From positions 1 through 24,208 of IMG/VR virus record IMGVR_UViG_3300017706_001625: DNA of 24,208 nt. The stretch is one strand, 5' to 3'. Below, in pieces: positions 2,342-20,610 of the stretch. Position 1 is the stretch's first letter, and each line of letters opens with the position of its first letter. The DNA comes from a virus. Taxonomy: Duplodnaviria; Caudoviricetes. The notes beneath the pieces were generated by a model, which saw only the letters and a program-made list of their open reading frames with translations, ran no database searches and was not told the origin of the DNA. Both the position numbers and the translations under genes were made by a program.

Positions 2342-4815
2342 GCCGGTATCGTTCATACGGTAAACTAGACGATCCATTCACATCGGAGGGGGATACTTTC
2401 TTTCTGCGGATGAATGCTCGTTTACGGCCTAATCAGTTAAAGCCTGGTGAGGTAGCATTGTCAAAGAATGGCCGCATGAATAAGGACGGAACTTGGCAAA
2501 CTCGCAAAGGGTTATCCACTCTGTTTGGTTCGATCACATCGGGAGCCGATGCAATTCGATTACCTTATTTAATTACCTCGGCCCAACGGTTTTCCAATGT
2601 GGTAACATTAACTTTAAATGCGACTCCGTCTTTATCTTTTATTCCTGGTAATAATATAACTATTGCAGACCTTGGATTTACCGGTGACGATCCGAACGGG
2701 ACTTTCCCTTTGGTCGATGTAAATTTTACGACCAAAACAGTTACTTACGCTGAAACCGGTGCGAATGAAAATTTTGCAATACGGCCCGAGACTGTGGCTA
2801 ACACATCGGTCCTTTTCCCTGGCGATTCCATACCAACCACTTTAAATTTTACACTTAACGATTTTGGAATTAACGAGGTTTTTGGATCGGCAGTTTTTAG
2901 TGACCCGTCACAAAACTTAGACGATTTTATTTTCATCGCAACAGACAGCACGGCGATAGCGATTCGCTTAAAAGATTCCACCCTTTTTAAATGTCGATAT
3001 GAATCGGGAGGGGAGTCTGTAGATGCCCCCGTAGGAATGCTACAAGGGTTGGGGAAGATGTTTATATTTCGGACCAATCAAACAACTTTAGAAGCCACTC
3101 CCTCGCTCCAATCTGTACCCGTCGCATCGGCATCCCAAAGTGGTCAGACTATAACGGTAAACACATCATCCGCCCACAATCGAGTAGCGAATGACTATGT
3201 CACTTTGTCGGGATTAGGAGCGGCTAGTGTGTCTCACGATCCCAACGGATGCTATCGGGTTTTAACCACACCTTCGGCCACTCAATTTACTGTAAGTATG
3301 ACGGGCAGTCAGACGGCCACTTTCTTTGTAAGCGGATCGACTGTTGAATATTTTGCAGACTTTGAACGAGTTCCAAGCGGTGATTATACATCGCCCTTAT
3401 TCTTAACCGATACAACGGCAACCTCGGCCAATGGCCTAGTTACTTTTGACATTCCAGGAGCGAATCAAAATCCGGCAAATTCATCATACCATAATATTTC
3501 TGTTGGCGATACGATTACCATCCGAGCGGGTGCAACTCCATTTGATACTTTTGTGGATGATAAAGCTCGATGCGTTAGCTCGTCCAACACTCAAGTAACT
3601 TTTAATTTAGGTGCAGTCAATGGGACAGCCAGCCTAACCATTTCTAAGCCATTGAGCGTGGGAAAAGGATTTATTCATCAACCAGCGGCTCCTTGGGCAG
3701 TAGTCCATCAAAGAAGGCTTTGGATGCCGTACTGGTATACTTCAGCCGCCCCACCGGTAGATCGAAATATTCGGGATGAAATAGTGGCCTCGGACATTCT
3801 TGATTTTAATACGATGGACCAAATTTCCAACCAATTCAAGCCAAGCTCAGGCCAGTCGGATTATTTGGTTGCACTGAAGCCTTTTACTCAGGATTCCATC
3901 GTAGCCTTTTTTAGAAAATCAATTCATCTAATGTCGGGAGTAAGTGGATCTTTAGCCGATGTATCGACCAATTTAGTCACCGATGAAATTGGATGCTCGG
4001 CTAGAAAATCTGTGGTCCAGGTTGCCAATCAAATTCTTTTCCTTTCGGATCAAGGCGTGTATGGAATCCAATTCCTTGACGAGTTCAATTTGCGAGGAGT
4101 GGAAATCCCTTTATCGGAAACTATCCAGCCATTTATCGACCGGATTAATCAGGACTATGTTCATCTGTCATGCGGAGTTTACTTCGACAATCGCTATTGG
4201 CTGGCCACTTGTTTGGACTCTGCTCCTGGTGTGGGAAATGCCACAACTCTAAACACTATTTTAGTTTATAGCTTTATAAATCAGGGGTGGGAAAGTATCG
4301 ACACAGTTAACTCCACAGAATTTGCGATCCGTGAACTTTTAGTCGCAAAAGAGGGCACGAAGAATGCCTTATATTTAACGACTGAAGAAGGCGGGGTCCA
4401 CAAAGTTGATGGATTTGAGGGAGGGGATGTGGTAAGCATTCAGGCTGGAGCATCGAGCGCGCAAACGATCCCCGTAGTCAGCCAAATAACTACCCGCCAA
4501 TATGATGCTGATCAACTCGACAGAAAAATGTTCAGCCGAGGCGAAATTCAATTAAAAAGCAATTTAGAAAGCCCGAGCGATGGTGATATCACTTTCATTA
4601 CGGAAGATCCCGATGCGGTATCACCCACAACAGTAGTGAGTGATTTACTAGGATCGACTTTAGCGGCAAGCGAAGATTCATCCATCCGATTAGGAATCAG
4701 AAAAAGAGGGTTTGGCATACAGGGAGATTTTAAGCCCACAACCGGCAGACCATTTGTTCGAGCGGTCAAAGTAGAAGCTCGAATCGCTGACCGATCAACC
4801 ACTTCAATAAAATAA
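2338..4815 (+). CDS. Podovirus-type tail tubular B / nozzle / head-stabilisation-like structural protein with inserted beta-rich repeats
   Basis: 825 aa, beta-rich; GTG start with GGAGG about 10 nt upstream; propeller-like segments (VVHQRRLW, IGCSARKSVVQVANQILFLSDQGVY, PLSETIQPFIDRIN, YFDNRYWL) typical of this class; position upstream of ejection proteins. Confidence 0.7.
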   Translation: MSRYRSYGKLDDPFTSEGDTFFLRMNARLRPNQLKPGEVALSKNGRMNKDGTWQTRKGLSTLFGSITSGADAIRLPYLITSAQRFSNVVTLTLNATPSLSFIPGNNITIADLGFTGDDPNGTFPLVDVNFTTKTVTYAETGANENFAIRPETVANTSVLFPGDSIPTTLNFTLNDFGINEVFGSAVFSDPSQNLDDFIFIATDSTAIAIRLKDSTLFKCRYESGGESVDAPVGMLQGLGKMFIFRTNQTTLEATPSLQSVPVASASQSGQTITVNTSSAHNRVANDYVTLSGLGAASVSHDPNGCYRVLTTPSATQFTVSMTGSQTATFFVSGSTVEYFADFERVPSGDYTSPLFLTDTTATSANGLVTFDIPGANQNPANSSYHNISVGDTITIRAGATPFDTFVDDKARCVSSSNTQVTFNLGAVNGTASLTISKPLSVGKGFIHQPAAPWAVVHQRRLWMPYWYTSAAPPVDRNIRDEIVASDILDFNTMDQISNQFKPSSGQSDYLVALKPFTQDSIVAFFRKSIHLMSGVSGSLADVSTNLVTDEIGCSARKSVVQVANQILFLSDQGVYGIQFLDEFNLRGVEIPLSETIQPFIDRINQDYVHLSCGVYFDNRYWLATCLDSAPGVGNATTLNTILVYSFINQGWESIDTVNSTEFAIRELLVAKEGTKNALYLTTEEGGVHKVDGFEGGDVVSIQAGASSAQTIPVVSQITTRQYDADQLDRKMFSRGEIQLKSNLESPSDGDITFITEDPDAVSPTTVVSDLLGSTLAASEDSSIRLGIRKRGFGIQGDFKPTTGRPFVRAVKVEARIADRSTTSIK

Positions 4816-4819
4816 AATT

Positions 4820-5608
4820 ATGGCAGTTATAGCGACATCACAAACTTTTACGACTAACGAACAGGTCACATCGGGAAAACTTAATGATATTGTGGCCCAA
4901 GCGACTTTTTCTGACCCCGCAGATGGATCTACCATAATCGCCAATAATTCGACTTATGGAGTTTCGGGCGGAGATGGAAAACTGAAAGTAAAGGATGCCG
5001 GAATCACCGCGACTCAGTTGGCCACGGATTCCGTGATTGAGACAAGGATTCAGAATGGTGCGGTAACCTCAAGCAAATTGGCGGCGAGTGCAATTAGTGC
5101 CATTATGCCCAGCGGTTCGCTCATGCCATATGCTGGGGCATCTGCTCCGACTGGTTATTTACTTTGCGATGGTGCGGCGATTTCAAGGTCAACTTATTCA
5201 GCTTTATTCGCTTTAGTCGGTACAACCTACGGGGCGGGCGATGGTTCATCGACTTTTAATATCCCCGATCTTCGAGGCCGAGTGATAGCCGGTCAGGACG
5301 ATATGGGCGGAGCATCCGCCAATCGATTAACCGGTTTGTCGGGCGGAGTTGACGGAGATATATTAGGCGGCACGGGAGGGGACGAAAAGCACGGTTTAAC
5401 ACATTTAGAGTCCGGCTTGCCGGCACACGCTCACACCACTCAACTCCGTGACACCGGTCCAGCGGGTGGTGGGCAACTAAGTGGCTATCAGGCATCTGCT
5501 GGTTCGGGAGCATTTTTTAATACGGACTCAGTCGCCGGTGCTAATGCAGCTTCAGTACACAACAATGTCCAGCCAACCATTATTTTAAATTACATAATAA
5601 AGACTTAA
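4820..5608 (+). CDS. Tail fibre protein with phage tail collar domain
   Basis: MPSGSLMPYAGASAPTGYLLCDGAAISRSTYSALFALVGTTYGAGDGSSTFNIPDLRGRV is a canonical collar domain; LPAHAH and HNNVQPTIILNYIIK C-terminus. Confidence 0.9.
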   Translation: MAVIATSQTFTTNEQVTSGKLNDIVAQATFSDPADGSTIIANNSTYGVSGGDGKLKVKDAGITATQLATDSVIETRIQNGAVTSSKLAASAISAIMPSGSLMPYAGASAPTGYLLCDGAAISRSTYSALFALVGTTYGAGDGSSTFNIPDLRGRVIAGQDDMGGASANRLTGLSGGVDGDILGGTGGDEKHGLTHLESGLPAHAHTTQLRDTGPAGGGQLSGYQASAGSGAFFNTDSVAGANAASVHNNVQPTIILNYIIKT

Positions 5609-6682: not shown

Positions 6683-8173
6683 ATGGCAATTGGAGATACA
6701 GTTCAGGCGGGTTTAATGAGGACAGATTCCTCGCCCATTCTTTTAGCGGGTCAGGCACAGGCGAAAGCAAACCAGGCATTCGGCGATGCTTTAAATACAG
6801 CGGCACAGGGTTATTTTCGAGGACAGGAAAAGAAGAAGAAATTAGAATCCACGAAGGAAGGGCTTCGATCTTTATTTCCCGATGCACCCGATGGATTAAT
6901 AAATTCAATGGCGAAAAACCCTGAAGTGGCTCAAACCAAAATGGCTCTTGAAAAATTAGCCATTGATCGAGAAAGAATCGCATCAGCGGCGGCCAGTGCG
7001 GCAGCCGCAAGGGCGCAAGCGGCGGCATTCCAGCAAGATAAGTTGGACGAGCGAAATCGTATTTTAAAAGAGGCGGAGGAGGCGGAGCAAAAGCAAATTG
7101 GCTTATCAAACTTTATCATGTCCGGCACGGAAATGAACCCCGAAGTCTTAGAAGATTTCAACGAAGCACAGCCTGGTCTTTTTGCTTTAGGCGGTGACCA
7201 AGGTGCAAGGAATCGATTTTTAGAGTCTCAAAGAGATAACGCTCCAAAAGTTGGTAAATTAGGCGGAGAGCTTGACTCCTCTGAATTTGGTCCGATGGCA
7301 ATGGAGGCGGGAGTTGATCCCGTGCTTGCTGGTAATTACTTTATGAAGTTACAGGCGAGGGAGGCTGAAGCTGCGCAGAATGCTCCAACTATATCGAGGG
7401 TGGGAAATGAATTAAACCCAAAAACAGGCGAGTATGAACAAGTTGCAAGAGACAAATTTGGGAATCCCATTGCCAATTACGGTCCGCCTAAACCTTCGGG
7501 GATGTATCGTACACCTAAAGAGGCGCGGGAAGAAGAAATCTTAGTTGGAAGGACTAAGGCTGCGATGGCATTTAATAAAGAATCTCGAAATAATTCTAAT
7601 ATTGCGATTTCACAAGCTGAACAAGCTCAACAGGCATTAAAATATTTGCCTGAAACGACTGGCGGTTTAACTAGCTTTGTAAACGAGATGAAAGTAATAG
7701 CTGAATCTTTGGGAATAGATTTACCGGAAGGATATCAAAAAGATATGGCCGATATTGGGGCATTTAGACAATTAACAGGTCAGTTCTTGTTCGAAGCAAT
7801 GAGCAACACCAAAGGGGCAATAACAGAAAGAGAAATGGCATTATTCCGCCAAATTTCTCCTGATATAGATAACTCTAGAGCGGCTAATAAATTAATGCTT
7901 GAAATTTATGTTAAGGCGGGAGATCGCGCGAAGAAAAGAAGAGACTTAATTAGGGACTTGCAGAGAAAAGATGTAGACCCAAGACAAATTCAAATCGCTA
8001 TTGAGGACTTCGATGATGCAAATTCTTTTATGGATGACATAAGAAGCTTACCTCGTAAAACAACCAAAAACTCTCCCGCCCAACCAAATCGTTCAGGAAG
8101 GCGCGGAAGTAATCCTTCACCCAACCCAAACGCTCAAACTCCGGGCGGATTTATACCTAGACAAATTAAATAG
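6683..8173 (+). CDS. Putative internal virion (DNA transfer) protein, coiled-coil
   Basis: 496 aa, charged helical composition; KGAITEREM motif near the C-terminus like ejection proteins; sits between two similar genes. Confidence 0.6.
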   Translation: MAIGDTVQAGLMRTDSSPILLAGQAQAKANQAFGDALNTAAQGYFRGQEKKKKLESTKEGLRSLFPDAPDGLINSMAKNPEVAQTKMALEKLAIDRERIASAAASAAAARAQAAAFQQDKLDERNRILKEAEEAEQKQIGLSNFIMSGTEMNPEVLEDFNEAQPGLFALGGDQGARNRFLESQRDNAPKVGKLGGELDSSEFGPMAMEAGVDPVLAGNYFMKLQAREAEAAQNAPTISRVGNELNPKTGEYEQVARDKFGNPIANYGPPKPSGMYRTPKEAREEEILVGRTKAAMAFNKESRNNSNIAISQAEQAQQALKYLPETTGGLTSFVNEMKVIAESLGIDLPEGYQKDMADIGAFRQLTGQFLFEAMSNTKGAITEREMALFRQISPDIDNSRAANKLMLEIYVKAGDRAKKRRDLIRDLQRKDVDPRQIQIAIEDFDDANSFMDDIRSLPRKTTKNSPAQPNRSGRRGSNPSPNPNAQTPGGFIPRQIK

Positions 8174-8175
8174 AT

Positions 8176-11100
8176 ATGGCTGAGTACGAAATCTCTCACC
8201 CCCGTATTCCACAAATCGGAAACACTGTCCTCGAAGGGCCGGACGATTTACCCCCGCCTACAGAGCAAGATTTTTGGAATGTGGTTCAGCAACAAGTTCG
8301 GCCTATAGGACTTTCCCAGTTGACTGATGAGGAGAAGATTTCCGCATACAAAAATGGATACTTCGATGAACCTGAACCGGTAGAAGGTCAACCCGAACAA
8401 CCTGGCATGGTTGACAGTCTGCTTGACTTAGGCGGTAAGGCTGTACTTCGAGGGTCGCAGATGGCCAATGTATTAACTGCCGGCACTATTGGACACTCCG
8501 GTCCATACGATAAACTTTTAAAACTCGAAGACGAAGCAGTCTCCTACGAAAAAACAGAGAATGCGGATCAATTTCGAGAGGCGGGGAAATACCTTTTTGG
8601 ATTCCTTGACAACACTGAGGAGGAACTAGATTTCGACCCCGTAGCCGAGGCACTCAAGCGAACAGGTATGCCATTCTACTCGAAAAATAAGGATGCCCGT
8701 GGCCGAGTGAAAACAGCCGCTATGGACTATGCACAGGATTCTATGGTTGCCGGAATGGGGGAGGGGTACATCCGAGCCGCCAGCGGTGGAGAGTTTTTGT
8801 ATAAAGGCGGGAAGTTTTTAAAAGATAAGCTCTTTTTAGATGAAGCCGATGACTCCGACATTCTTGACTATGTAAATTCTGCAATTGAGTTTGATGCGTT
8901 AAATCATCGTTATGAAAATTCAGCCGAATTGGCGGCCTTTGTCTTAGAAAATCCACAGGAATCCGTAAAAGCAATGGGGGCGGGATTAGTAGGAGGATTA
9001 ACCCCAATTGTTGAGGCGGAAGACTTGAACGAAATTCTAATCGACGAGGGAGATATAAACTTGGATTCAGATCTTCAACAGGATATCCGTTCGGGATTCG
9101 TACAGCCCGATGTTGGAGTTTCTTTTCTCTCGGAGGTAGTCGGAGATCCAATGAATTTAGCTGGCGGTACAACAGCCAAAGCGGTAACCGCTCCCCAGCG
9201 AGTTGCATTGTCCGGAAAAATCACACAAACTTTAAACGAGGTTACTAAACTCAACCAGGGCAAGGGCATGGCAATCCGTGCATTAGAGAAATTCCCCGAG
9301 GACTCTTTAATCGCCCAGCGACAAGCAAAGTATTTAGAGGCCGCCAACCAATCACTCGCACAGAAACAAAAAGTCCTAGATAAATATGCTCGTAATTCAA
9401 TGTTCTTACGAATGGCGGCTCAATCATCGCCCGATGAATTATTAAAGGTCGCCGCTCAGAATATTGACACCGCATCCGATGCCGGAAAGGCATCCATGAA
9501 CATGGTATATAATGCCATGAAGCCAAGCGGAAAAATGGGCATCGCCCGCAAAGGAATAGCAATGGGTGCAAGACTAACTCCCGAAATTGCTGGGGCAACT
9601 ATCGGTGCATCTTTGGCCGGTCCCGAGGGCGCGGCAGTTGGTGCTATTACCCCATCCTTGATAAAGGCGGCAAAAATAGTTTCCACCATGCCGGAAAATG
9701 TAGCGATATCTTATATTATGAGATCCGCCACAGAAGCGGGGGAGGAGATAACCGAACAGGCGGCAAGGAAGCAATGGAGGGGGATCACAAAATACTTATA
9801 TCCTTCGGGAATTTTAGGGATCGGAATTGGTTCTGCTTCGGAGGGGAGAGAGGAGGGTGGAACTAATCCTTTGTTAAAGTTTGGGGCCGCAGCATTGGGT
9901 TTAAAAGCTTTACCAAAAATTGCCAAATTTGCCGATGCCGCAATAAGGGATAGTCGAGTAATTGGGCCGGAATTAATTTATGCGAGAGGGTCAGAGGCTA
10001 GTCCGTTCTTTAATAGGCTGGCATTGTTACCATCGGGTGAGGAAGGATTAATCGGAGCTAATGCTGACCGCTTTCAGGCACTCACTCGGACATCTAGTGG
10101 CGAGACTTTATTAGAGAAAGCGATTGATAAGGTCAGACCAATGGGCCGAGGGATCGCAACATCGATTAAAGATGAAGTACCGCTTTCCGAGGGGGCAAGA
10201 AATTTAATAAATAAAATACCGGGTTTCGATAGCGTACAAGGTAAAACCGGCGCACCCTTTCGACCAGGGCTTAGTGACACCAATAAAATGCTTTCCAACC
10301 CAACAAGGAAAGCCGCCCAGTTCTTGGATCGCAATCCGGCACTTGGACGGAGTATCGAAACACTCGGGCGATTTGGTGCTGTGGTAACTGCGGGGTCAAC
10401 TTTACCCGCCGCCTTTGGTTATGTTGGGTCGGGCGGACAAGCAGAAGGTGCGATTGCCGGAGCATTAGTATCTGCTCCATTTACATCAATCGGTGCGGGT
10501 GCTGGGATGTTTCAAGCGTACAAAAATAAGAGCGATTTATTTCAGCAAAAGATGGGCGATGTTTATTACTATCGGGAACATCTCAATAAAAGTGAACAGG
10601 CTGACTTTGATAAGTTGCCGATGGAAGCGCGTATGGGATTAGCGGGTTACAGTTTGTCGCATCCCGATATTCTTTTTAAGCCCTTACCGGCGGACAAAAT
10701 GGAGGGACAAGGGAACTGGTCATTTGATGAAAATACTGGGACTTCAGTTGTACAATTTGATAAAGATACGGGGGCTGGATTAGTCGAGGGAGTTTTAGCC
10801 CATGAGGTCGGACATCACATCGAAATTCACGGGCTTACCCCAATGGTCAATAAAATATTTTTCGGAGACCAAGTGACCGGCGAGGCGGGAATATATGGGA
10901 AGTTTAATGAAGAAGGCGAAATCGTACCAAACCAGGCGTTTGAGGATTTACGGACTTTATATTTAAACCGACTAACTAAAGACGCTTCTATCAAACCCGA
11001 AAATTTAGATCAGTACCAAGGTAAAGAGGGGAATGAAATAATCGCAAAGGAAATTTTTGCTGAAACTGCCCGAGATTATTTATTGTCGGGGAAGAAAAAT

Positions 11101-14100
11101 AAAGGTAACACGGCAATCGAGAAAATGATTACATCCGCATCGAATGCAATGATGGGAACTTCATTTGTCCGAGACTTTTTGCTGAAGTTTAATTTACCCA
11201 TGAAAGCGGACGGAAAGTTTATTGAGGGCGGCCCGTTTGAAGGTACATTAAAAAGGAATCCGAAACTCTCTAAACTGATCGATCAGTATTATTCTGACAC
11301 CCGTGCTTTGAGACAAAGAGAGATCCAAGGCGACGAAATTACGACACCTGGTTCAGGGCGAGTAGATAAAAAATTATCAGCGGACGGAAGAAGGCCAATC
11401 GGAGGGGACGATTTCGAAAGTTCATTCTCATTGAAAGACCAAAACGATCCGGCGATTAAAGCAAAATTAGACACCGGTGGAATCTTTAAATGGAGACCAA
11501 CAGCAGACGGAAAAGGATCGGAATTAGAGACTGGTGCGACTGGTACTCCGAAGCGATATACTGCGGGGGAATTAAAGAAAGAACAGAGACTACAGGGTGA
11601 CCATGCTATTAAAGTTTTCGAGGACAATGGAATAGAAATTATTACTAATAAGGACGGAAAGAAATCGACAGGAGATATTACAAATTTAACCTCCAAAATG
11701 ATTGACGAATTGGCGGCTGGTCCGTGGCATCCTCGTCAGATTCAAACACTCCGAGAAATCAGTCGATCATTACGAGAAGGTGATGGAGAAAGAGCGGGAT
11801 TTTTAATTGGATATTTTGCCGCCTCTAGTGGCAGAAAACCGAAGGCCGTACCATTCACTTTGAGGCAAGAAATGCCATACGGATTTAAGCTCACAAATGA
11901 TGGAAATATCCTTGTCCTTTTACACGATGTTCCGCAACTCGAAAAAAATCTTAAATTCTTAAAAGGGGGCAAGAGATTGCCAGGTAAATACAGAGACGAA
12001 TATAATCAACTTTTTGACAACGATACAGAAGTTTGGAAAGCATTTCAGCAGTACAGAATTAACACCGCAAATGGCATGGATGGACAGCTTGGATTAGACG
12101 ATGATCCAGCCCGAGCAATGCGTAAGAAAAATTTCTTAAATTCATTGCATGGGGCGATAGATAAAGAGCATATAAAACTAAACCCGGTTTTACTTGAAAT
12201 AAGTAATATTAAGGGCATGGATATGTTCAATCCAAAAAAGACAAGTCCGTTCGGTCCAGCGACTAAAACCTTTCGACTAGATCGCATTTTTGATGTCACT
12301 AGATCGGGTAATAGAAACTCGAATGTAAACCTTGATCGAGTAAGAACATTACTAATGCCTCGTCAGTCTAAAAACTATGATAAAAAAGTAGCACTTAGAA
12401 CTAACGATAGTTTAATCGAATTAGTAGATAAAATAGCGAACGAAGAAGGAGTCTCTAGAAACGATGTTTTGAATCGGATTTTGCAAGAGAAATTTAGTCC
12501 CGAAGAAATTAAAACACCGGACTCGGAAAATGTTCCACCATCACCAAGAAAAGAATCTCAAAATTTATCTGAACCAACATTAAAAAAACCTTGGTCCGAG
12601 GACAGCGATCAAAGTTTAAACTGGTTGCAAAATGACCCGAATAAAAAACTTTTTATGCCCGCTGAAAGTGTCGAACAAAGACGGGCAAATAAATATGGTC
12701 AAAAGCTTCAAGAAGCAACTTTGTCAGACAAACAAATTATTGCAGAAGCAAGACGGGATTGGATGGAGAATGGATTCAAGGCCGAGAACTTTCAGGCATG
12801 GATGTCCGGTGGAATTGAACGGCCAATTTTAGCCAATGAAAAGGATGGTTTCTACGAGCCTATAAAACTATATTATGGTGGGCCTTTGGGCATGGCAAAA
12901 CGCCCCGGCTTTAATGCCGCCGCCCCGTTAGAAATTTTACAGAAATCAGAATTTTCTGAGGGAGTAACAAAAAAGGCCACTGATCAGTATAAATCGGATA
13001 AAACAATCGTATTAACTGATAGTAAGAAACTCGCAAAAGCTGAACAGGATGCCACCGCAGAAGGGGGTAAACCATTAGAGTTTGCAACCAACGCAAGCTT
13101 TATATTTGACCCCGCTGTTCCGCAACATATTGAACTGCTTAAAAATTCAATCGAACGAGTAGAACCTGACTCTCCGGAAATTCAAAATATCGACAGGTTG
13201 AAAAATAATCCCGATGATACTTTTGCCTACGAAGATCTTTTGAAAAAAGCCGGTTGGGATGGGTACAAAATTGACAATAAGGATGGTGTGGGATATGCCA
13301 TTTTTGACGCTAAAAAAGTGAAGCTAATATCCGACCAGGCGGGTGAAGGAAAGTTCTTTACAAAAGACCGGCCTTATGGAAAAGTTTCCGGCCTCTTTGG
13401 CCGACCACTTCCATCGGATCGAATGAGTGCGATGGGGCAAAGTGAGCGGGGTAGGGATGTCCGATTCATGCCTCAAATGGAAATGGATTTTGACGGCAAA
13501 AGTAAGACTACTAGGCCGACTGAACAACCCTCGCAAGGTATATCCTTTTGGAAGCTTTTTGGCATAGATAAAAATGATAAACAAGTATATAAAAAAGTAG
13601 CTGAAAAACTTATCAATACTGGTAGCCCGGATATGGACCCGCAGACCGCTTTAGACTATGGTCCGAGGCTCGGTTTAAATACCAAAAGACTTCGCCAAGA
13701 AATGCGACTGGCGCAAAAAAGAAATAGTTCATCCGGTAAATATTTTTTACCTAAATTACCGACTTATAAAAAAGATGGAAAAACCTTTAAAATCCCATTG
13801 CCTCCAACCAGCCCCGATGCGCCAAGAGCATACCACGGTTCGAAGAAAAAATATGGCTATCCAGATGAAAAATATTTAGGCGATTTTACAAAAAATTTGG
13901 GGTACATAGGAATGGGTTATTATGGCCACCCGAAACGCATCGATGCAGAAATGTATGCAGTCTCGGAAAGCAAAAGTTTATACAGCTTCGAAATGCTCCC
14001 TGAAGGCCAAACTATGGACTCTCATTTACCAGTCGGCGAACAACACCCAAGCATCAAAAAAAATCTAAAAAAATTATTCGAAACTAAGGTCAGCGGAACC

Positions 14101-15123
14101 GGTCAAAATTTAAAAGATTTATGGGCTAAATTTTACACCGAAAACCCCACCCGATATGTTGACGAAATGTTGCGATCCGATAATGATATTTATGGGGGGC
14201 AGATCAACCCCGAAATCAACAAAAATATCGGTAATAAAATTTACATGGGCTTAGTAAATCTATACTCGAAAAATCCTGTCGAAACAGTGGGCTACCTCGC
14301 TAATAGTCCAGACAATATCGCCGCCGCTTCAACAGTAAATAAAATTCTAGCCAAAAATAATATCAAAGGAGCAATTTCATCTCCACATGAAGGGCCTGGT
14401 GGCCGGCAAGTTTCACCCGAAGTCGTAGTCTTTGATTTTAATGAAATTAGAGATTTTCGAAGTGAGGGAAATAAACTTTTCATGCCAGCCTCCGAAGCGG
14501 GTGCGACTAAGGGGAAGGTGGCCGAGGCCGCAAAGCTATGGAATGAGAAGGGGATTGATTCGCCATACTTTAAGAAGTGGTTCGGCAAGTCCAAGGTAGT
14601 CGATGAGAACGGCGAGCCGTTGGTGGTTTATCATGGGAGTAAAGCAGATTTTACCGAGTTTAAAAGGTCAAAGGGGGGCGAATTTGGATCAGGAATGTAT
14701 TTCTCTGATAACATTGATTCGGCAAAAATGTTTGGAAGTTTTCAAAAAGGGGACTCGGAAGTTGTCACAATGCCGGTCTATTTAACTTTAAAGAATCCAT
14801 TGATTACCAACGATAGAAATGTCCCAAGGGGTGCGGGGATCAAATCTCTAATTAAAAAAGGATATGACGGAGTAATTGGGACTACACCAAACGGGCAAAA
14901 GCAATACATCGCCTTCTCCCCCGAACAAATCAAATCGGCCACCGGCAACCGAGGGACTTTCGATGCGGGGGAGAGGAATATAAACTATATGCCTTCAGAC
15001 CCCAAAGCCCCAAAGGCTCAACCCGCCAATCGCATCCAACAGCAAGCACCAGCTATGCCTGGTAATCGCTTCATGGCTCCAGCCGCAAGTGCCGGATCGA
15101 AGTTATCGGAAAGATTTCGGTAA
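8176..15123 (+). CDS. Giant internal virion / polyvalent protein: membrane-like Gly/Ala segments, zincin HExxH motif, RHH domain and three ADP-ribosyltransferase-like (ART-PolyVal-type) modules
   Basis: 2315 aa; HEVGH at 10801-10815 with downstream EIFAE at 11050; FKKWFGKSKVVDENGEPLVVYHGS...GMYFS...VYL.LKNP...GYDGVI...AFSPEQIKSATGNRGTFD in the last module; AYHGS at 13828; last gene of the virion operon. Confidence 0.8.
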   Translation: MAEYEISHPRIPQIGNTVLEGPDDLPPPTEQDFWNVVQQQVRPIGLSQLTDEEKISAYKNGYFDEPEPVEGQPEQPGMVDSLLDLGGKAVLRGSQMANVLTAGTIGHSGPYDKLLKLEDEAVSYEKTENADQFREAGKYLFGFLDNTEEELDFDPVAEALKRTGMPFYSKNKDARGRVKTAAMDYAQDSMVAGMGEGYIRAASGGEFLYKGGKFLKDKLFLDEADDSDILDYVNSAIEFDALNHRYENSAELAAFVLENPQESVKAMGAGLVGGLTPIVEAEDLNEILIDEGDINLDSDLQQDIRSGFVQPDVGVSFLSEVVGDPMNLAGGTTAKAVTAPQRVALSGKITQTLNEVTKLNQGKGMAIRALEKFPEDSLIAQRQAKYLEAANQSLAQKQKVLDKYARNSMFLRMAAQSSPDELLKVAAQNIDTASDAGKASMNMVYNAMKPSGKMGIARKGIAMGARLTPEIAGATIGASLAGPEGAAVGAITPSLIKAAKIVSTMPENVAISYIMRSATEAGEEITEQAARKQWRGITKYLYPSGILGIGIGSASEGREEGGTNPLLKFGAAALGLKALPKIAKFADAAIRDSRVIGPELIYARGSEASPFFNRLALLPSGEEGLIGANADRFQALTRTSSGETLLEKAIDKVRPMGRGIATSIKDEVPLSEGARNLINKIPGFDSVQGKTGAPFRPGLSDTNKMLSNPTRKAAQFLDRNPALGRSIETLGRFGAVVTAGSTLPAAFGYVGSGGQAEGAIAGALVSAPFTSIGAGAGMFQAYKNKSDLFQQKMGDVYYYREHLNKSEQADFDKLPMEARMGLAGYSLSHPDILFKPLPADKMEGQGNWSFDENTGTSVVQFDKDTGAGLVEGVLAHEVGHHIEIHGLTPMVNKIFFGDQVTGEAGIYGKFNEEGEIVPNQAFEDLRTLYLNRLTKDASIKPENLDQYQGKEGNEIIAKEIFAETARDYLLSGKKNKGNTAIEKMITSASNAMMGTSFVRDFLLKFNLPMKADGKFIEGGPFEGTLKRNPKLSKLIDQYYSDTRALRQREIQGDEITTPGSGRVDKKLSADGRRPIGGDDFESSFSLKDQNDPAIKAKLDTGGIFKWRPTADGKGSELETGATGTPKRYTAGELKKEQRLQGDHAIKVFEDNGIEIITNKDGKKSTGDITNLTSKMIDELAAGPWHPRQIQTLREISRSLREGDGERAGFLIGYFAASSGRKPKAVPFTLRQEMPYGFKLTNDGNILVLLHDVPQLEKNLKFLKGGKRLPGKYRDEYNQLFDNDTEVWKAFQQYRINTANGMDGQLGLDDDPARAMRKKNFLNSLHGAIDKEHIKLNPVLLEISNIKGMDMFNPKKTSPFGPATKTFRLDRIFDVTRSGNRNSNVNLDRVRTLLMPRQSKNYDKKVALRTNDSLIELVDKIANEEGVSRNDVLNRILQEKFSPEEIKTPDSENVPPSPRKESQNLSEPTLKKPWSEDSDQSLNWLQNDPNKKLFMPAESVEQRRANKYGQKLQEATLSDKQIIAEARRDWMENGFKAENFQAWMSGGIERPILANEKDGFYEPIKLYYGGPLGMAKRPGFNAAAPLEILQKSEFSEGVTKKATDQYKSDKTIVLTDSKKLAKAEQDATAEGGKPLEFATNASFIFDPAVPQHIELLKNSIERVEPDSPEIQNIDRLKNNPDDTFAYEDLLKKAGWDGYKIDNKDGVGYAIFDAKKVKLISDQAGEGKFFTKDRPYGKVSGLFGRPLPSDRMSAMGQSERGRDVRFMPQMEMDFDGKSKTTRPTEQPSQGISFWKLFGIDKNDKQVYKKVAEKLINTGSPDMDPQTALDYGPRLGLNTKRLRQEMRLAQKRNSSSGKYFLPKLPTYKKDGKTFKIPLPPTSPDAPRAYHGSKKKYGYPDEKYLGDFTKNLGYIGMGYYGHPKRIDAEMYAVSESKSLYSFEMLPEGQTMDSHLPVGEQHPSIKKNLKKLFETKVSGTGQNLKDLWAKFYTENPTRYVDEMLRSDNDIYGGQINPEINKNIGNKIYMGLVNLYSKNPVETVGYLANSPDNIAAASTVNKILAKNNIKGAISSPHEGPGGRQVSPEVVVFDFNEIRDFRSEGNKLFMPASEAGATKGKVAEAAKLWNEKGIDSPYFKKWFGKSKVVDENGEPLVVYHGSKADFTEFKRSKGGEFGSGMYFSDNIDSAKMFGSFQKGDSEVVTMPVYLTLKNPLITNDRNVPRGAGIKSLIKKGYDGVIGTTPNGQKQYIAFSPEQIKSATGNRGTFDAGERNINYMPSDPKAPKAQPANRIQQQAPAMPGNRFMAPAASAGSKLSERFR
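12349..15081 (+). repeat. Dispersed peptide linker repeat [FYL]-[ML]-P (seven copies) within the giant ORF
   Basis: LLMP 12349, KLFMP 12646, RFMP 13462, KYFLP 13738, KLFMP 14473, NYMP 14983, RFMAP 15067; copies fall at apparent domain boundaries. Confidence 0.7.
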
Positions 15124-15124
15124 T

Positions 15125-15367
15125 CTATTCCCGCTCAATTTCCTCAATGTAAAAATCTCCGACCTCTCGCATCAACTTTGCTAGTAAGGCGGGATCATTA
15201 CCAGGAGGATCGATAAAGGTAGGGTCGAATGTTTCGCCATCTTCTGATTCTATCAGTTCAGCTATAAACTTTGGACTATGGAGGTGAACAACGAATGTCC
15301 GATCCTCTGTATCGCCGATGATAAACTTTGGGAACTTTGCCTCGAATGAATTAGGATCGTTAACCAT
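15125..15367 (-). CDS. Small acidic hypothetical protein, the only credible minus-strand gene
   Basis: Occupies sequence with no + strand gene; stop abuts the giant ORF stop with a 1-nt gap; ATG at 15367 preferred over TTG at 15373. Confidence 0.7.
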   Translation of the reverse strand: MVNDPNSFEAKFPKFIIGDTEDRTFVVHLHSPKFIAELIESEDGETFDPTFIDPPGNDPALLAKLMREVGDFYIEEIERE

Positions 15368-15472
15368 TCCCAATTAAATAACCCAAAGCTACATGAGTAA
15401 AGTATTAACAGCCTCCCATTTCTTTCGCTAACCCTTGCCTTAGAATTAGTCTATTTTATAGCAATTTAGTCC

Positions 15473-18520: not shown

Positions 18521-18671
18521 CTGGGTAAAAATAGGAACTGGTTTTCGGCCTGATGATTCGCCGTATCAGGTAAACAAAATCCATTGCACCGAATGCGATC
18601 AATTATGGATGGATGATGAGGATGAATTGTGCGATTGCGAGGATGAGGAGGAATGTGCAGATGAGAGCTAG
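18513..18671 (+). CDS. 52-aa acidic Cys-rich protein (not in ORF track)
   Basis: MHNWVKIGTGFRPDDSPYQVNKIHCTECDQLWMDDEDELCDCEDEEECADES; overlaps both neighbours and fills the gap. Confidence 0.6.
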   Translation: MHNWVKIGTGFRPDDSPYQVNKIHCTECDQLWMDDEDELCDCEDEEECADES

Positions 18672-18906
18672 GAAATTCAGATCAGCTAATTTTTCACTCG
18701 GAGGGAAAGTAACGGAAAGCCACTTAATTGTTGGCCTTCCAGCTTACTTAAAATCAATGATTCAAGATTTCTGCCATCAGCAAAAAATAAGCATGAGCGG
18801 ATATGCCATGAAATTAATTTTAGCGGATTTAAGACCGAAGATTAAAAAGCTCGATGATTACATGAAAGAGGTCGAAAGAGTTCAGGAAATCGAAAGTAAA
18901 CTGTGA
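18661..18906 (+). CDS. Ribbon-helix-helix-like DNA-binding protein
   Basis: Start moved to ATG 18661 (GAGGAGG upstream); HLIVGLPAYLKSMIQDFCHQQKISMSGYAMKLILADL fits strand-helix-turn-helix of RHH. Confidence 0.6.
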   Translation: MRARKFRSANFSLGGKVTESHLIVGLPAYLKSMIQDFCHQQKISMSGYAMKLILADLRPKIKKLDDYMKEVERVQEIESKL

Positions 18907-19118
18907 GCGATTTCTCGGATTTCGGAAGTAATCTCTCACGGGAAGTGTCTGAAGCGTATGAGCGTTTTTGGAGTAAGAACCAACTGACTACGGTTTGGGA
19001 TAATGGGGAAGGGCGGACCGTGCGGACTACAATGCCGAGGGTCCGCCCGAAATCCAAGGGTGAATTAGATTTTAGAAATAAGAAGAAAGGGACGAAAGAA
19101 GATGGCAAAGTTTATTAG
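18903..19118 (+). CDS. Hypothetical protein
   Basis: 71 aa; GTGA overlap with the upstream gene and short overlap with the methyltransferase. Confidence 0.6.
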   Translation: MSDFSDFGSNLSREVSEAYERFWSKNQLTTVWDNGEGRTVRTTMPRVRPKSKGELDFRNKKKGTKEDGKVY

Positions 19119-20610
19119 TTTATTCGCTGGGGTCGGTGGATTCGATCTTGGCATGGAACAGGCGGGGCATGAATGTGTTGCCCAAGTGGAATGGGACAAG
19201 AATGCGGCGGGTGTATTAAAGCATCGCTGGCCGAATGTTCCCCTGTTCTGCGATGTATCCAAAGTATCGGCGGATGATTTGCCCGATGCAGATTTTATAA
19301 CATACGGATTCCCATGCCAGGACTTGAGCGTGGCCGGTAAAAGAGAGGGATTAGATGGAAAACGAAGCGGATTATTCTGGGAAGCCACACGCATTATCAA
19401 ACAACTTGCAGAGCGAGCTATTCGGAGAGGAGGAGCTGGCGGAGGTAGGTTCATCGCAGTCGCTGAGAATGTCAAAGGATTGCTCTCTAGCGGAGATGGT
19501 TACGACTTTGCGAGGTGCATCCGAGAGTTACACAACATCGGGGCTAGTGAAGTCGGATTCTCAGTATTTGATTCTCAATACTTCGGAGTGGCGCAAAGAC
19601 GCAAGCGTGTGTTCCTTGTCGCAGATTTTGGAGGCGAATCCACATCCGAAATACTCGCTTTCTCCGAAGGCATGTCAGGGCATCCTCCGCCGAGCAGAAA
19701 AGCGGGGAAAGGAACTGCCGGAGATGCTACAGAAAGCGTTGGAGAGGGTGGCAAGTGCGACTGTGATCCAAACGGAACAGCAGGAACACTCCTCGCAAGA
19801 GACTACAAAGGACTAGGGAATCAAGACTTAGAGACGGGTAGAGGTTTAGCATTACAAGCCCAATCCACAGGAAGTGACCCCGATCTAATGGCCACGCTAT
19901 GTGCGAAGGATAATGATAAGATTGGATCGAACCAATGGGTGAAGGAGGGGGAGGCAATTATCGAAGGAGTAGACTGGTATAACAATGCAGTCACAGGAGA
20001 TATAAATCATACCCTTAAAATAGGTGGAGATGTACCTGGTGTAATTCAACAAGAAGGCATCGCCTTTGAGCCTAGAAGTGCAGATGGCGAACCTAGAATA
20101 ACAGGTGATATAAAAGAGGTTGTCAGTCCTACCTTAAACTGCATGGGCGGAGGGCAGCGTGAACCTTCAGTAGTCTCCTGGAACGGAGACACAACCCCTA
20201 AGGCTTCGGAGGATGTATCGGTAACTCTGCGTAGCCAGCAAGGCGGGGAAGGCGTGGGGGTGGCTCATGCGGCAGATCTTTATAATTTTACGACTAACGA
20301 TCAAACAAACCAAACTCTGAGAGGAGGGGCGGCGCAATGCAAAGAGCATTATGGGGCGGTCGTTAAAGAAAACCTAACAGTCCGCCGACTCACTCCAATC
20401 GAATGTGAGAGGCTACAGGGATTCCCCGATAATTGGACATCGGAAAAGATGGAAATGACCCTTGAGGGGAACGAGTGGAAGGCTACCGGCAAGGTGGTCA
20501 AACAGGCTGATGGACCACGATATAAAGCCATGGGGAACGCTATTACTGTCAATGTTGGAGCGTGGATAGGGAAACAGATTGGAAAGGTACTTAATGAAAA
20601 CAATATATAA
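19102..20610 (+). CDS. dcm: DNA (cytosine-5)-methyltransferase with expanded variable region
   Basis: Motif I LFAGVGG, IV GFPCQDLS, VI ENV, VIII QRRKRVF, IX-like RRLTPIECERLQGFPD, X GNA. Confidence 0.95.
   Translation: MAKFISLFAGVGGFDLGMEQAGHECVAQVEWDKNAAGVLKHRWPNVPLFCDVSKVSADDLPDADFITYGFPCQDLSVAGKREGLDGKRSGLFWEATRIIKQLAERAIRRGGAGGGRFIAVAENVKGLLSSGDGYDFARCIRELHNIGASEVGFSVFDSQYFGVAQRRKRVFLVADFGGESTSEILAFSEGMSGHPPPSRKAGKGTAGDATESVGEGGKCDCDPNGTAGTLLARDYKGLGNQDLETGRGLALQAQSTGSDPDLMATLCAKDNDKIGSNQWVKEGEAIIEGVDWYNNAVTGDINHTLKIGGDVPGVIQQEGIAFEPRSADGEPRITGDIKEVVSPTLNCMGGGQREPSVVSWNGDTTPKASEDVSVTLRSQQGGEGVGVAHAADLYNFTTNDQTNQTLRGGAAQCKEHYGAVVKENLTVRRLTPIECERLQGFPDNWTSEKMEMTLEGNEWKATGKVVKQADGPRYKAMGNAITVNVGAWIGKQIGKVLNENNI
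19355..19816 (+). CDS. Nested +1-frame gene resembling the beta polypeptide of M.EcoHK31I-type two-chain C5 methyltransferases
   Basis: LNTSEWRKDASVCSLSQILE...KYSLSPKACQGILRRAEKRGKELPEMLQKALE recognised from memory; GAGGG 5 nt before ATG 19355; alternative in-frame ATG at 19469 inside the ENV codons. Confidence 0.7.
   Translation: MENEADYSGKPHALSNNLQSELFGEEELAEVGSSQSLRMSKDCSLAEMVTTLRGASESYTTSGLVKSDSQYLILNTSEWRKDASVCSLSQILEANPHPKYSLSPKACQGILRRAEKRGKELPEMLQKALERVASATVIQTEQQEHSSQETTKD

Follow-up and report, generated by a model that had tools for sequence, protein, structure and literature searches.

Polyvalent proteins are the closest described relatives of the system considered here. In the 2017 account of these proteins, their delivery together with DNA and their autoprocessing by a zincin domain were proposed, and in the available part of that account neither a cleavage site nor a junction motif is named (Iyer, Burroughs, Anand, de Souza, Aravind; PMC5512222). 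In this current study, a 24,208-nucleotide stretch of DNA from a tailed virus (Caudoviricetes; IMG/VR record IMGVR_UViG_3300017706_001625) was analysed; this stretch, hereafter the window, takes up its whole source record, which has 24,208 bases only. One open reading frame (ORF) of the window, P0001 (8176..15123, + strand), encodes a giant protein of 2315 aa. Like the described polyvalent proteins, it is a giant phage protein that joins a zincin-like metallopeptidase, an ART-PolyVal (ADP-ribosyltransferase, ART) domain and unrelated domains; it differs in having an explicit inter-module motif, a conserved tail, and a fixed order of scaffold, zincin, cargo and tail. By the domains that define the class in its sequence (size, several unrelated effector-type domains, and PF18760), the giant protein is a polyvalent protein, with a new and explicit cassette architecture. 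The inter-module motif, which has F-M-P at its centre and is called here the FMP-type motif, appears to be the border where unrelated modules replace each other, and we tentatively predict that it is also a site cut by the zincin of the same protein. For polyvalent proteins, zincin autoprocessing was proposed in 2017 and has, to judge from the same part of that account, had no site assigned to it since then (PMC5512222); the present family supplies a mutable candidate site together with candidate catalytic residues.

Three further systems bear on the comparison. On the proposed reading, the giant protein is like MARTX toxins (PMC6315884), in which a delivery scaffold carries a strain-variable effector array and a protease processes the inter-effector regions in cis. 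However, MARTX toxins are bacterial and aimed at eukaryotic cells, and their protease is of the cysteine type and is switched on by inositol hexakisphosphate, whereas here the protease would be a zincin and cleavage is predicted. No cysteine protease domain and no RTX repeats were detected in the giant protein with Pfam (E ≤ 1), and no sequence or fold relationship to MARTX was found; the giant protein is therefore not a MARTX member, and the logic alone is alike. Polymorphic toxin systems of the Rhs, CdiA and MuF types (PMC3482391) likewise have a short motif at the border of a constant part and exchangeable C-terminal domains, a likeness that we take as analogy only. Those systems have one terminal toxin and an immunity gene, whereas in the present family a structural gene of phages holds up to seven tandem modules, and every module has a motif of its own. 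VENN and DPxGL are the demarcation motifs of polymorphic toxin systems. Lastly, in cyanopodophage A4 (PDB 9k3a) packaged ejection proteins form a pre-ejectosome at the capsid centre (PMC12002296). A domain of chain B of that assembly is the best solved match of an ART module of the window; the A4 system differs in that no ADP-ribosyltransferase, cargo array or processing is mentioned in the available part of its description (PMC12002296).

Seven copies of the motif lie on the + strand within the giant ORF, each at the coordinates given for it in a preliminary description of the window. They are LLMP at the end of the scaffold (motif 1, aa 1392-1395, 12349..12360), KLFMP (motif 2, aa 1491-1495, 12646..12660), RFMP (motif 3, aa 1763-1766, 13462..13473), the degenerate copy KYFLP (motif 4, aa 1855-1859, 13738..13752), a second KLFMP (motif 5, aa 2100-2104, 14473..14487), NYMP (motif 6, aa 2270-2273, 14983..14994), and RFMAP, inside the C-terminal tail (motif 7, from aa 2298, 15067..15081). 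When the pattern [FYLM]MA?P was counted in the whole protein, 6 occurrences were observed against 0.69 expected, and only 2 of 20,000 residue shuffles reached 6; in the last 935 aa, 6 were observed against 0.33 expected, and none of 20,000 shuffles did so. KYFLP falls outside this pattern, and its counterpart in the nearest relative is KYFMP. That relative, the viral contig G001 (the same as L001, L012 and L013; 38,001 bp, 41 ORFs), is the nearest complete one, and 7 of the 9 loose motif matches that it encodes fall in its giant protein.

To follow the motif beyond the window, 120 proteins listed by a database search were examined. The relatives P0002-P0092 carry the motif, whereas P0093-P0120 are classical polyvalent proteins that were matched through their ART domain and lack FMP. 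Together, the 92 motif proteins (P0001-P0092) hold 384 copies with a median spacing of 162 residues. HExxH is present in 88 of them; the other four start with odd N-termini and may be fragments. In the 88 HExxH-bearing proteins, 363 copies follow HExxH, over 100,975 residues, and the 66,742 residues on its N-terminal side hold a single copy. The consensus over 220 distinct contexts is [D/N/E]-K-L-[F/Y]-M-P-[A/S]-[S/D]-E, and the variants DIRYMPA and DIRFMPQ also occur in the family. At the DNA level, 56 distinct 18-mers were found among 85 instances from the fetched loci, and all four Pro codons are used (29, 24, 17 and 15 times), close to background, in agreement with the preliminary description, where codons were said to differ between copies. 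Since the codons vary, the constraint is mainly on the peptide. Some codon bias is also present: CTC and CTT for Leu and TTC for Phe are over-used, and one 18-mer family, AAACTCTTCATGCC[A/G]GCC, accounts for 17 of the 85 instances. These biased, recurring 18-mers look like copies of one ancestral linker. A motif-string search of the literature did not find the FMP-type motif named among the matches listed, 'rfmap' occurring inside unrelated words only. In a separate 2638-aa protein (L044:5429-13342, on a 75-kb viral contig), SAGFMPGE and NVSFMPGE stand 91 residues apart, upstream of ART-PolyVal and DUF7178; this FMPGE pair may be a further variant of the motif.

Homologues of the giant protein retain the N-terminal ~1390 aa, and their cargo varies. 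As the comparison of the giant genes of the window and its nearest complete relative showed, the two are collinear at 93% nucleotide identity over codons 1-1859, then diverge totally, and are collinear again, at 94%, from codon 2100. To within a codon, the left breakpoint falls right after K-Y-F-[L/M]-P (motif 4) and the right one at K-L-F-M-P (motif 5). Between these breakpoints the window has one 240-aa module and its relative has two modules, of ~135 and ~276 residues. The pair thus offers a codon-resolution view of phage swapping likely injected effectors between near-identical genomes. The same borders were seen across the family. BLASTP blocks end on the left 1-10 residues before the motif Pro at 3915 of 11,573 internal ends, and on the right 0-4 residues past it at 2438 of 8739, in counts that include many related pairs and with alignments that the motif itself lengthens. 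When junction pairs sharing the downstream module only were compared, identity was ~70% from position +1 on and 5-23% before -5; pairs sharing the upstream module only gave the reverse pattern, with identity up to -5 of 0.3-0.4 vs 0.05-0.23. From +1 onward, the sequence follows the downstream module (identity ~0.7 vs 0.1-0.2), and positions -4 to -2 follow both modules. Among DNA-level block ends (internal megablast ends, 85% identity), 37 of 114 lie within 8 aa of a motif (≤8 aa), vs 9% for random positions. These combined sequence data support the motif as the border where unrelated modules replace each other, which was one of the two roles that the preliminary description had suggested for it, that of a cassette-exchange junction: the scaffold is kept, the cargo is varied, one swap ends at two motifs, and similarity blocks are bounded by the motif.

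The location of the motif in the predicted structure was assessed with AlphaFold2. Two overlapping parts of the protein, aa 790-1500 (model 1) and aa 1480-2315 (model 2), were folded with alignments. Model 1, with a mean predicted local distance difference test (pLDDT) value of 69.9, shows three folded regions, namely the zincin-like core, an alpha/beta domain at aa ~1089-1378, and the two helices of a ribbon-helix-helix (RHH)-like module; around its motifs, LLMP (pLDDT 32-35) and KLFMP, the pLDDT is 32-39. Model 2 has a mean pLDDT of 57.2 and confident blocks at aa 1499-1720, 1788-1853 and 2108-2254. All 6 motifs in model 2 lie below pLDDT 50, for which the chance probability is near 0.013, as ~48% of that model is below 50; motif 2 is below 50 in both models, motif 3 lies within a low stretch spanning aa 1721-1787, and motif 6 is also below 50. 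Overall, all 7 motifs are found in pLDDT<50 segments flanking blocks at pLDDT 65-96. The models thus place the motifs in what appear to be flexible linkers between folded blocks rather than inside folded domains, and in homologues the motif is found at the junctions. A crude composition-based disorder index gave no clear separation of the motifs. The possibility that the motif is a terminal strand of the ART fold was rejected: 91 of 104 small ART-PolyVal proteins lack the motif, and the motif also bounds non-ART modules.

Upstream of all seven motifs lies the conserved scaffold (aa 1-1391, 8176..12348, + strand), which is 40-82% identical in homologues and 23-29% identical in remote versions. 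It includes a zincin-like core (~aa 798-1049, 10567..11322, + strand; model pLDDT 70-86) with the HExxH sequence HEVGH (aa 876 onward, 10801-10815) and the sequence EIFAE (aa 959 onward, 11050-11064, E959 being its first Glu), both on the + strand and both where the preliminary description had placed them. In an alignment of 49 sequences, some of them only 17-30% identical to the query here, P830, H876, E877, H880, Y929, E959, A962, Y1038, N1258 and G1326 are invariant; with the zincin core alone aligned over 19 sequences, the set was the same, with G914, K983 and R999 added. In model 1 (model numbering), HEVGH lies on helix 84-95 and E959 on a later helix, 160-182, next to a three-stranded sheet. 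E959 is the likely third zinc ligand, for which the preliminary description had placed a candidate in EIFAE. In alignment and model alike, the arrangement of H876, E877, H880 and E959 fits the gluzincin pattern, an HExxH helix and a later-helix Glu, both conserved. The scaffold region is thus predicted to take a zincin-like arrangement, at middling Z, and from the conserved residues we infer zincin peptidase activity.

The best structural neighbours of the core are M34 zincins. VIA matched it to the anthrax lethal factor catalytic domain (Z 5.9, root-mean-square deviation 5.1, 138 aligned), to the N-domains of edema factor and Certhrax, to PPEP-2 (Z 5.0), to PprI (4.9) and to neprilysin, thermolysin and ArdC (4.3-4.5). 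M34 zincins, to which lethal factor and the PPEPs belong, resemble the core in having an HExxH and, further along on a second helix, a Glu. Some targets of lethal factor are cut after proline, and the enzyme uses an E-x-x-A-E helix. The substrates of PPEP, in turn, hold several consecutive short Pro-containing sites in linker regions (PMC8610288). On the other side of the comparison, the Z values are middling, sequence searches gave no link, and PPEPs are small, secreted and act in trans. In a phmmer search of PDB with the zincin core no match was found, and in Pfam this region falls in no peptidase family. In a complex prediction that paired aa 800-1079 and a motif peptide of 42 residues, the scores were 0.31 and 0.00, where the mark is 0.32; it had no controls and counts neither way. 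Between the zincin and motif 1 lies an alpha/beta domain with a WYL/Sm-like barrel (~aa 1132-1381, 11569..12318, + strand; pLDDT 80-94), for which VIA gave middling matches (Z 5.3-6.5) to the ligand-sensing WYL domains of PafBC (6.5), BrxR, CapW and DriD. The WYL-like domain might thus serve as a sensor that regulates the protease. The same region also resembles Sm/Hfq barrels among solved-structure matches, which are again middling. The first six residues of the scaffold are alike even in diverged members of the family (MAEYEI, MAKYEI, MPKYEL, MPKYRI and MGQYRI; window 8176-8193).

At its other end the protein closes with a conserved tail (14995..15120, + strand), which holds motif 7 and ends ...SERFR. 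In 13 loci whose last 46 residues start ...MPS, 35-45 of the 46 are identical to those of the window, and in five where they start ...NFLPAG, 27-33 are; over these 18 loci, 5-10 of 14-23 four-fold sites differ from the window. Judged by these sequences, strong purifying selection acts on the tail, which stays almost the same even where the scaffold has only 23-29% identity to the query.

A related motif was found in other polyvalent proteins. None of the 28 classical polyvalent proteins (P0093-P0120) has the FMP motif; in 11 of them (P0093-P0097, P0099, P0102 and P0104-P0107), 3-4 copies of [D/K][I/V]RYSLR are present, and R[FY]S occurs 4-7 times in each against 0.5-0.8 expected. The wider pattern, [D/K][I/V]R[Y/F]SL[R/S], brackets ART-PolyVal domains in zincin-bearing proteins, with 3-4 copies in each, as noted at L048, in the P0093-P0107 range and at L057, L058 and L060. 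One RYSL protein that seemingly lacks a zincin is an internal piece of ORFs of 3294-3608 residues; the zincin is upstream in the same ORF at all three complete loci. Another giant ORF (L048:6587-15547, 2987 aa, with a HEITH zincin) has no FMP, one TYSLS and three DIRYSLS, one pair of them bracketing the ART domain. Three small ART proteins end in NPD[I/V]RFSLA. Given the RYSL copies in these proteins and DIRYMPA and DIRFMPQ in the present family, FMP seems to be the form that a broader junction motif, D-x-[R/L]-[F/Y]-x-x, takes in one lineage, and the RYSL-type motif looks like its sister version. A motif-string search of the literature did not find the RYSL-type motif named among the matches listed. 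If the RYSL motif works alike, the rule would reach many phage and plasmid giants.

How might such an architecture work? We predict that the scaffold zincin cuts at the motif and frees the cargo in the host, after likely ejection of the protein from the virion, a reading that we put forward tentatively and rate slightly short of an even chance. The giant protein would likely be packaged as an ejection protein and then ejected with its cargo; the position of its gene at the end of the structural block and, by analogy, the precedent of cyanophage A4 make this status likely. The zincin would cut at or beside each motif, with the aromatic residue or the Pro possibly the specificity determinant, and the modules so released, ART-type and other, would then act on targets in the host. 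Exchange would take place at the motif, as unrelated modules share no other sequence and only recombinants with intact sites and modules would survive. Autoprocessing is preferred because the catalytic residues are invariant with no other evident substrate, because the motif is in flexible linkers and downstream of the protease only, and because a conserved aromatic residue and Pro suit zincin pockets, repeated short Pro sites being read by PPEPs, which are M34 zincins (PMC8610288). It is also preferred because of its precedents, MARTX toxins (PMC6315884) and the 2017 proposal for polyvalent proteins (PMC5512222).

Several points weigh against this reading. The fold matches of the zincin core are all below Z 8, that is, middling; when model 1 was compared with PDB by Foldseek, nothing was found at E ≤ 0.001 (best E 0.13), and a profile search of PDB with the core returned the HExxH helix only (E 0.038). 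The co-occurrence of motif and zincin (88 of 92) is not independent evidence, because the zincin travels with the whole scaffold. Module 4, between motifs 4 and 5, is poorly modelled, and the linker status of its flanks therefore rests on the neighbouring blocks only. As to exchange, 77 of the 114 DNA-level block ends lie away from motifs, about twenty of them in the scaffold, and at eight loci (L001, L018, L020, L024, L025, L028, L037 and L042) one DNA block of at least 85% identity spans KLFMP, from 116 residues before it to ~50 into the ART module. This block starts in the end of the 'AAYHGTPH...NYVIFDEADV' module, and because it is common to phages with different scaffolds, that module and the ART module travel as one unit; recombination is thus not confined to motifs, and homologous exchange takes place inside shared modules too. 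Zincin-bearing proteins can moreover do without cleavage, since N4 virion RNA polymerase, ArdC and TraC1 are packaged or transferred uncut (PMC5512222). The main doubt comes from the tail. Cuts at the last two motifs would free just 29- and 13-residue peptides, and a docking or leader signal would account no less well for these two cargo-less motifs and the strong selection on them; that the tail holds them suggests that the motif may also, or instead, be a binding element.

Such a binding element would be a short linear docking element, above all in the tail, and not a cleavage site; the modules would stay tethered to the scaffold, and the partner would be the portal, the capsid interior or ejection proteins (for packaging), or else a chaperone or translocation factor of the host, which would pull on each module and refold it while the unfolded chain is probably emerging from the tail. 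We consider it unlikely, although it accounts well for a tail that has two motif copies and no cargo, that keeps 35-45 of 46 residues in the 13 ...MPS loci while 5-10 of 15-23 four-fold sites differ, and that is near-identical on such remote scaffolds. It also suits a motif that is a basic-plus-hydrophobic patch in a flexible segment, and the N4 virion RNA polymerase, which is packaged uncut, needs its zincin region for encapsidation (PMC5512222). However, docking leaves the invariant catalytic Glu and zinc ligands without a role, no partner is identified, and why the element precedes every module, including empty spacers of 8-28 residues, is unexplained. If instead the motif were a mere tolerated linker, a junction for in-frame joining that is inherited with each cassette and has no biochemical role, then breakpoints at the motif, the partly shared codon pattern (CTC/CTT, TTC and the 18-mer family in 17 of 85) and the ~10-30 post-motif residues (ASEAGAxKGK...) common to several module types would be expected. 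We regard this as quite improbable, as M and P are conserved although any Pro codon is used, scaffolds only 17-30% identical and degenerate spacers still have the motif, a related motif occurs in unrelated polyvalent lineages, and 12-18 imperfect bases would be a poor substrate for homologous exchange. The motif might also be cut by another protease, of phage head maturation or of the host, with the scaffold zincin acting on the host cell wall or on defence proteins, which strikes us as very improbable. Head proteases do trim packaged phage proteins, for example Alt and the internal proteins of T4. In addition, Iyer et al. allow zincins as effectors (PMC5512222), and the gp28 metallopeptidase of the A4 pre-ejectosome is described as hydrolytic, beside a lytic transglycosylase (PMC12002296). 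Against this stand the motif's near confinement to the zincin-bearing protein and, as weak evidence, scans of 19 proteins with Pfam and of 16 with PHROGs, out of the 41 ORFs of the nearest complete relative, in which no head protease was recognised. Autoprocessing thus remains our preferred, if tentative, reading. Its extension, that polyvalent proteins are true polyproteins, with a lineage-specific site D-x-[R/L]-[F/Y]-[M/S]-[P/L] that would be read by their own zincin, perhaps host-activated via the WYL-like sensor, and would double as module connector, is a prediction that we find doubtful, with an appreciable chance of being correct.

The cargo was then classified by cutting the proteins at their motifs and clustering the pieces. 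Besides a single scaffold class, this gave a tail piece of 29 residues, an end of 13 residues and many module families. Scaffold and tail are both present in 65 of the 92 proteins, which show 40 cargo orders of 1-7 modules each and at least 24 module types; some motif-bounded spacers are empty and only 8-28 residues long, and the ~10-30 residues past the motif recur in several module types. Recognisable cargo (Pfam) comprises ART-PolyVal, DUF7178, a weak GNAT, a Phage_L5_gp82 domain and DUF3990, and most types have no Pfam match. With most of them of unknown function, these at least 24 module types form a candidate list of host-takeover or anti-defence proteins.

In the window, five cargo modules, all on the + strand, lie between motifs 1 and 6. 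Module 1 (aa 1396-1490, 12361..12645; module family 6) is a weak RHH/Arc-like domain followed by a low-complexity linker. It had been called RHH in the preliminary description, and the evidence leans weakly that way (a PHROG Arc-like match at E 0.0014, Arc repressor at E 0.12-0.29, and two helices at pLDDT 73-83). Three ART modules had also been described, which by strict test is an overcount. The best founded is module 5 (aa 2105-2269, 14488..14982), which is recognised by Pfam as ART-PolyVal (PF18760, aa 2143-2262, E 7.6e-28, 98.5 bits, where the cut-off is 31.2). Its best solved match by VIA is a cyanophage A4 pre-ejectosome chain (Z 8.1, root-mean-square deviation 2.9, 103 aligned), followed by the catalytic domains of PARP (Z 7.3-7.9) and then by ADP-ribosylating toxins; 60 matches at E ≤ 0.001 were found among predicted viral structures, mostly ART-PolyVal proteins. 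Module 2 (aa 1496-1762, 12661..13461; pLDDT 74-91) has no Pfam match and is a diverged ART-PolyVal relative by profile comparison, with an hhalign probability of 97.2% to the ART cluster (E 3e-11, 155 columns) and a BLASTP match at E 0.001; in it LYYGG replaces YHG. The third, module 4 (aa 1860-2099, 13753..14472), in place of which the nearest complete relative has two other modules, is possibly ART-like, and this is a lead only. Its relatives are P0002 and P0050 only, and it is poorly modelled (pLDDT 23-59) for lack of relatives. A language-model score of 0.94 relates it to clusters with 22-35% PF18760 members, and BLASTP gave the short ordered matches YHGS and Y[IL]AxSP (E 0.17-0.44); no link to the ART cluster was found among the best 30 hhalign pairs, with a profile of 3 sequences only. 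Module 3 (aa 1767-1854, 13474..13737) proved to be the helical unit of ~90 aa that the preliminary description had seen there, with pLDDT 81-96 and an hhalign probability of 99.9% to a recurrent family, family 4.

All sizeable ORFs of the window are on the + strand, and the giant ORF is the last gene of the structural block. Upstream of it lie genes for virion and tail proteins, including a tail-collar fibre protein (4820-5608), and downstream those for a resolvase, an exonuclease, a DNA methyltransferase, a family-A DNA polymerase, an HNH endonuclease and a dNMP kinase (PHROGs and Pfam in both cases). For the ORFs after 15123 a PHROGs scan alone was made, which gave no match, and no search was aimed at immunity genes. 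The nearest complete relative encodes, beyond the content of the window, an SU10-type major capsid protein, a large terminase, a primase-helicase and an integrase. Among 50,697 deposited phage genomes, the scaffold had no match at E ≤ 0.01 and no DNA match; the ART domain alone of the giant protein matched 41 of these records. The source is an uncultured podophage-like lineage. In a species-representative set of bacterial genomes, the sole family member (L051) is on a 2,584-bp contig in the bin of an Opitutales genome, with the same motifs and tail; this binning is the sole hint of a host, and points weakly to Opitutales.

Cargo with the motif or tail was also found free-standing. Most short matches begin at the motif's own Met on contigs of ~1 kb, and a few are on contigs of 32-39 kb (P0121, P0123, P0132 and P0151). 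Among them, P0121, P0128-P0130, P0133 and P0135 are database proteins that begin MPASEAGA..., that is, at the motif Met, most of them on ~1 kb contigs; such short proteins look like gene-caller fragments of giant genes.

Comparison of the window with the nearest complete relative revealed further differences. The stretch at 7144-15346, which contains the giant gene, is the most similar one, with 92-94% nucleotide identity as compared with 70-87% in the structural and replication genes on either side; the higher identity suggests recent exchange of the giant gene or stronger constraint on it. Just after its giant gene the relative has a tyrosine integrase (24030-25041), where the window has 73 bases (15346-15419). 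Conversely, a DNA methyltransferase of 502 aa (window 19102-20610) is absent from the relative, the corresponding intervals being 18649-20593 in the window and 28292-28844 in G001.

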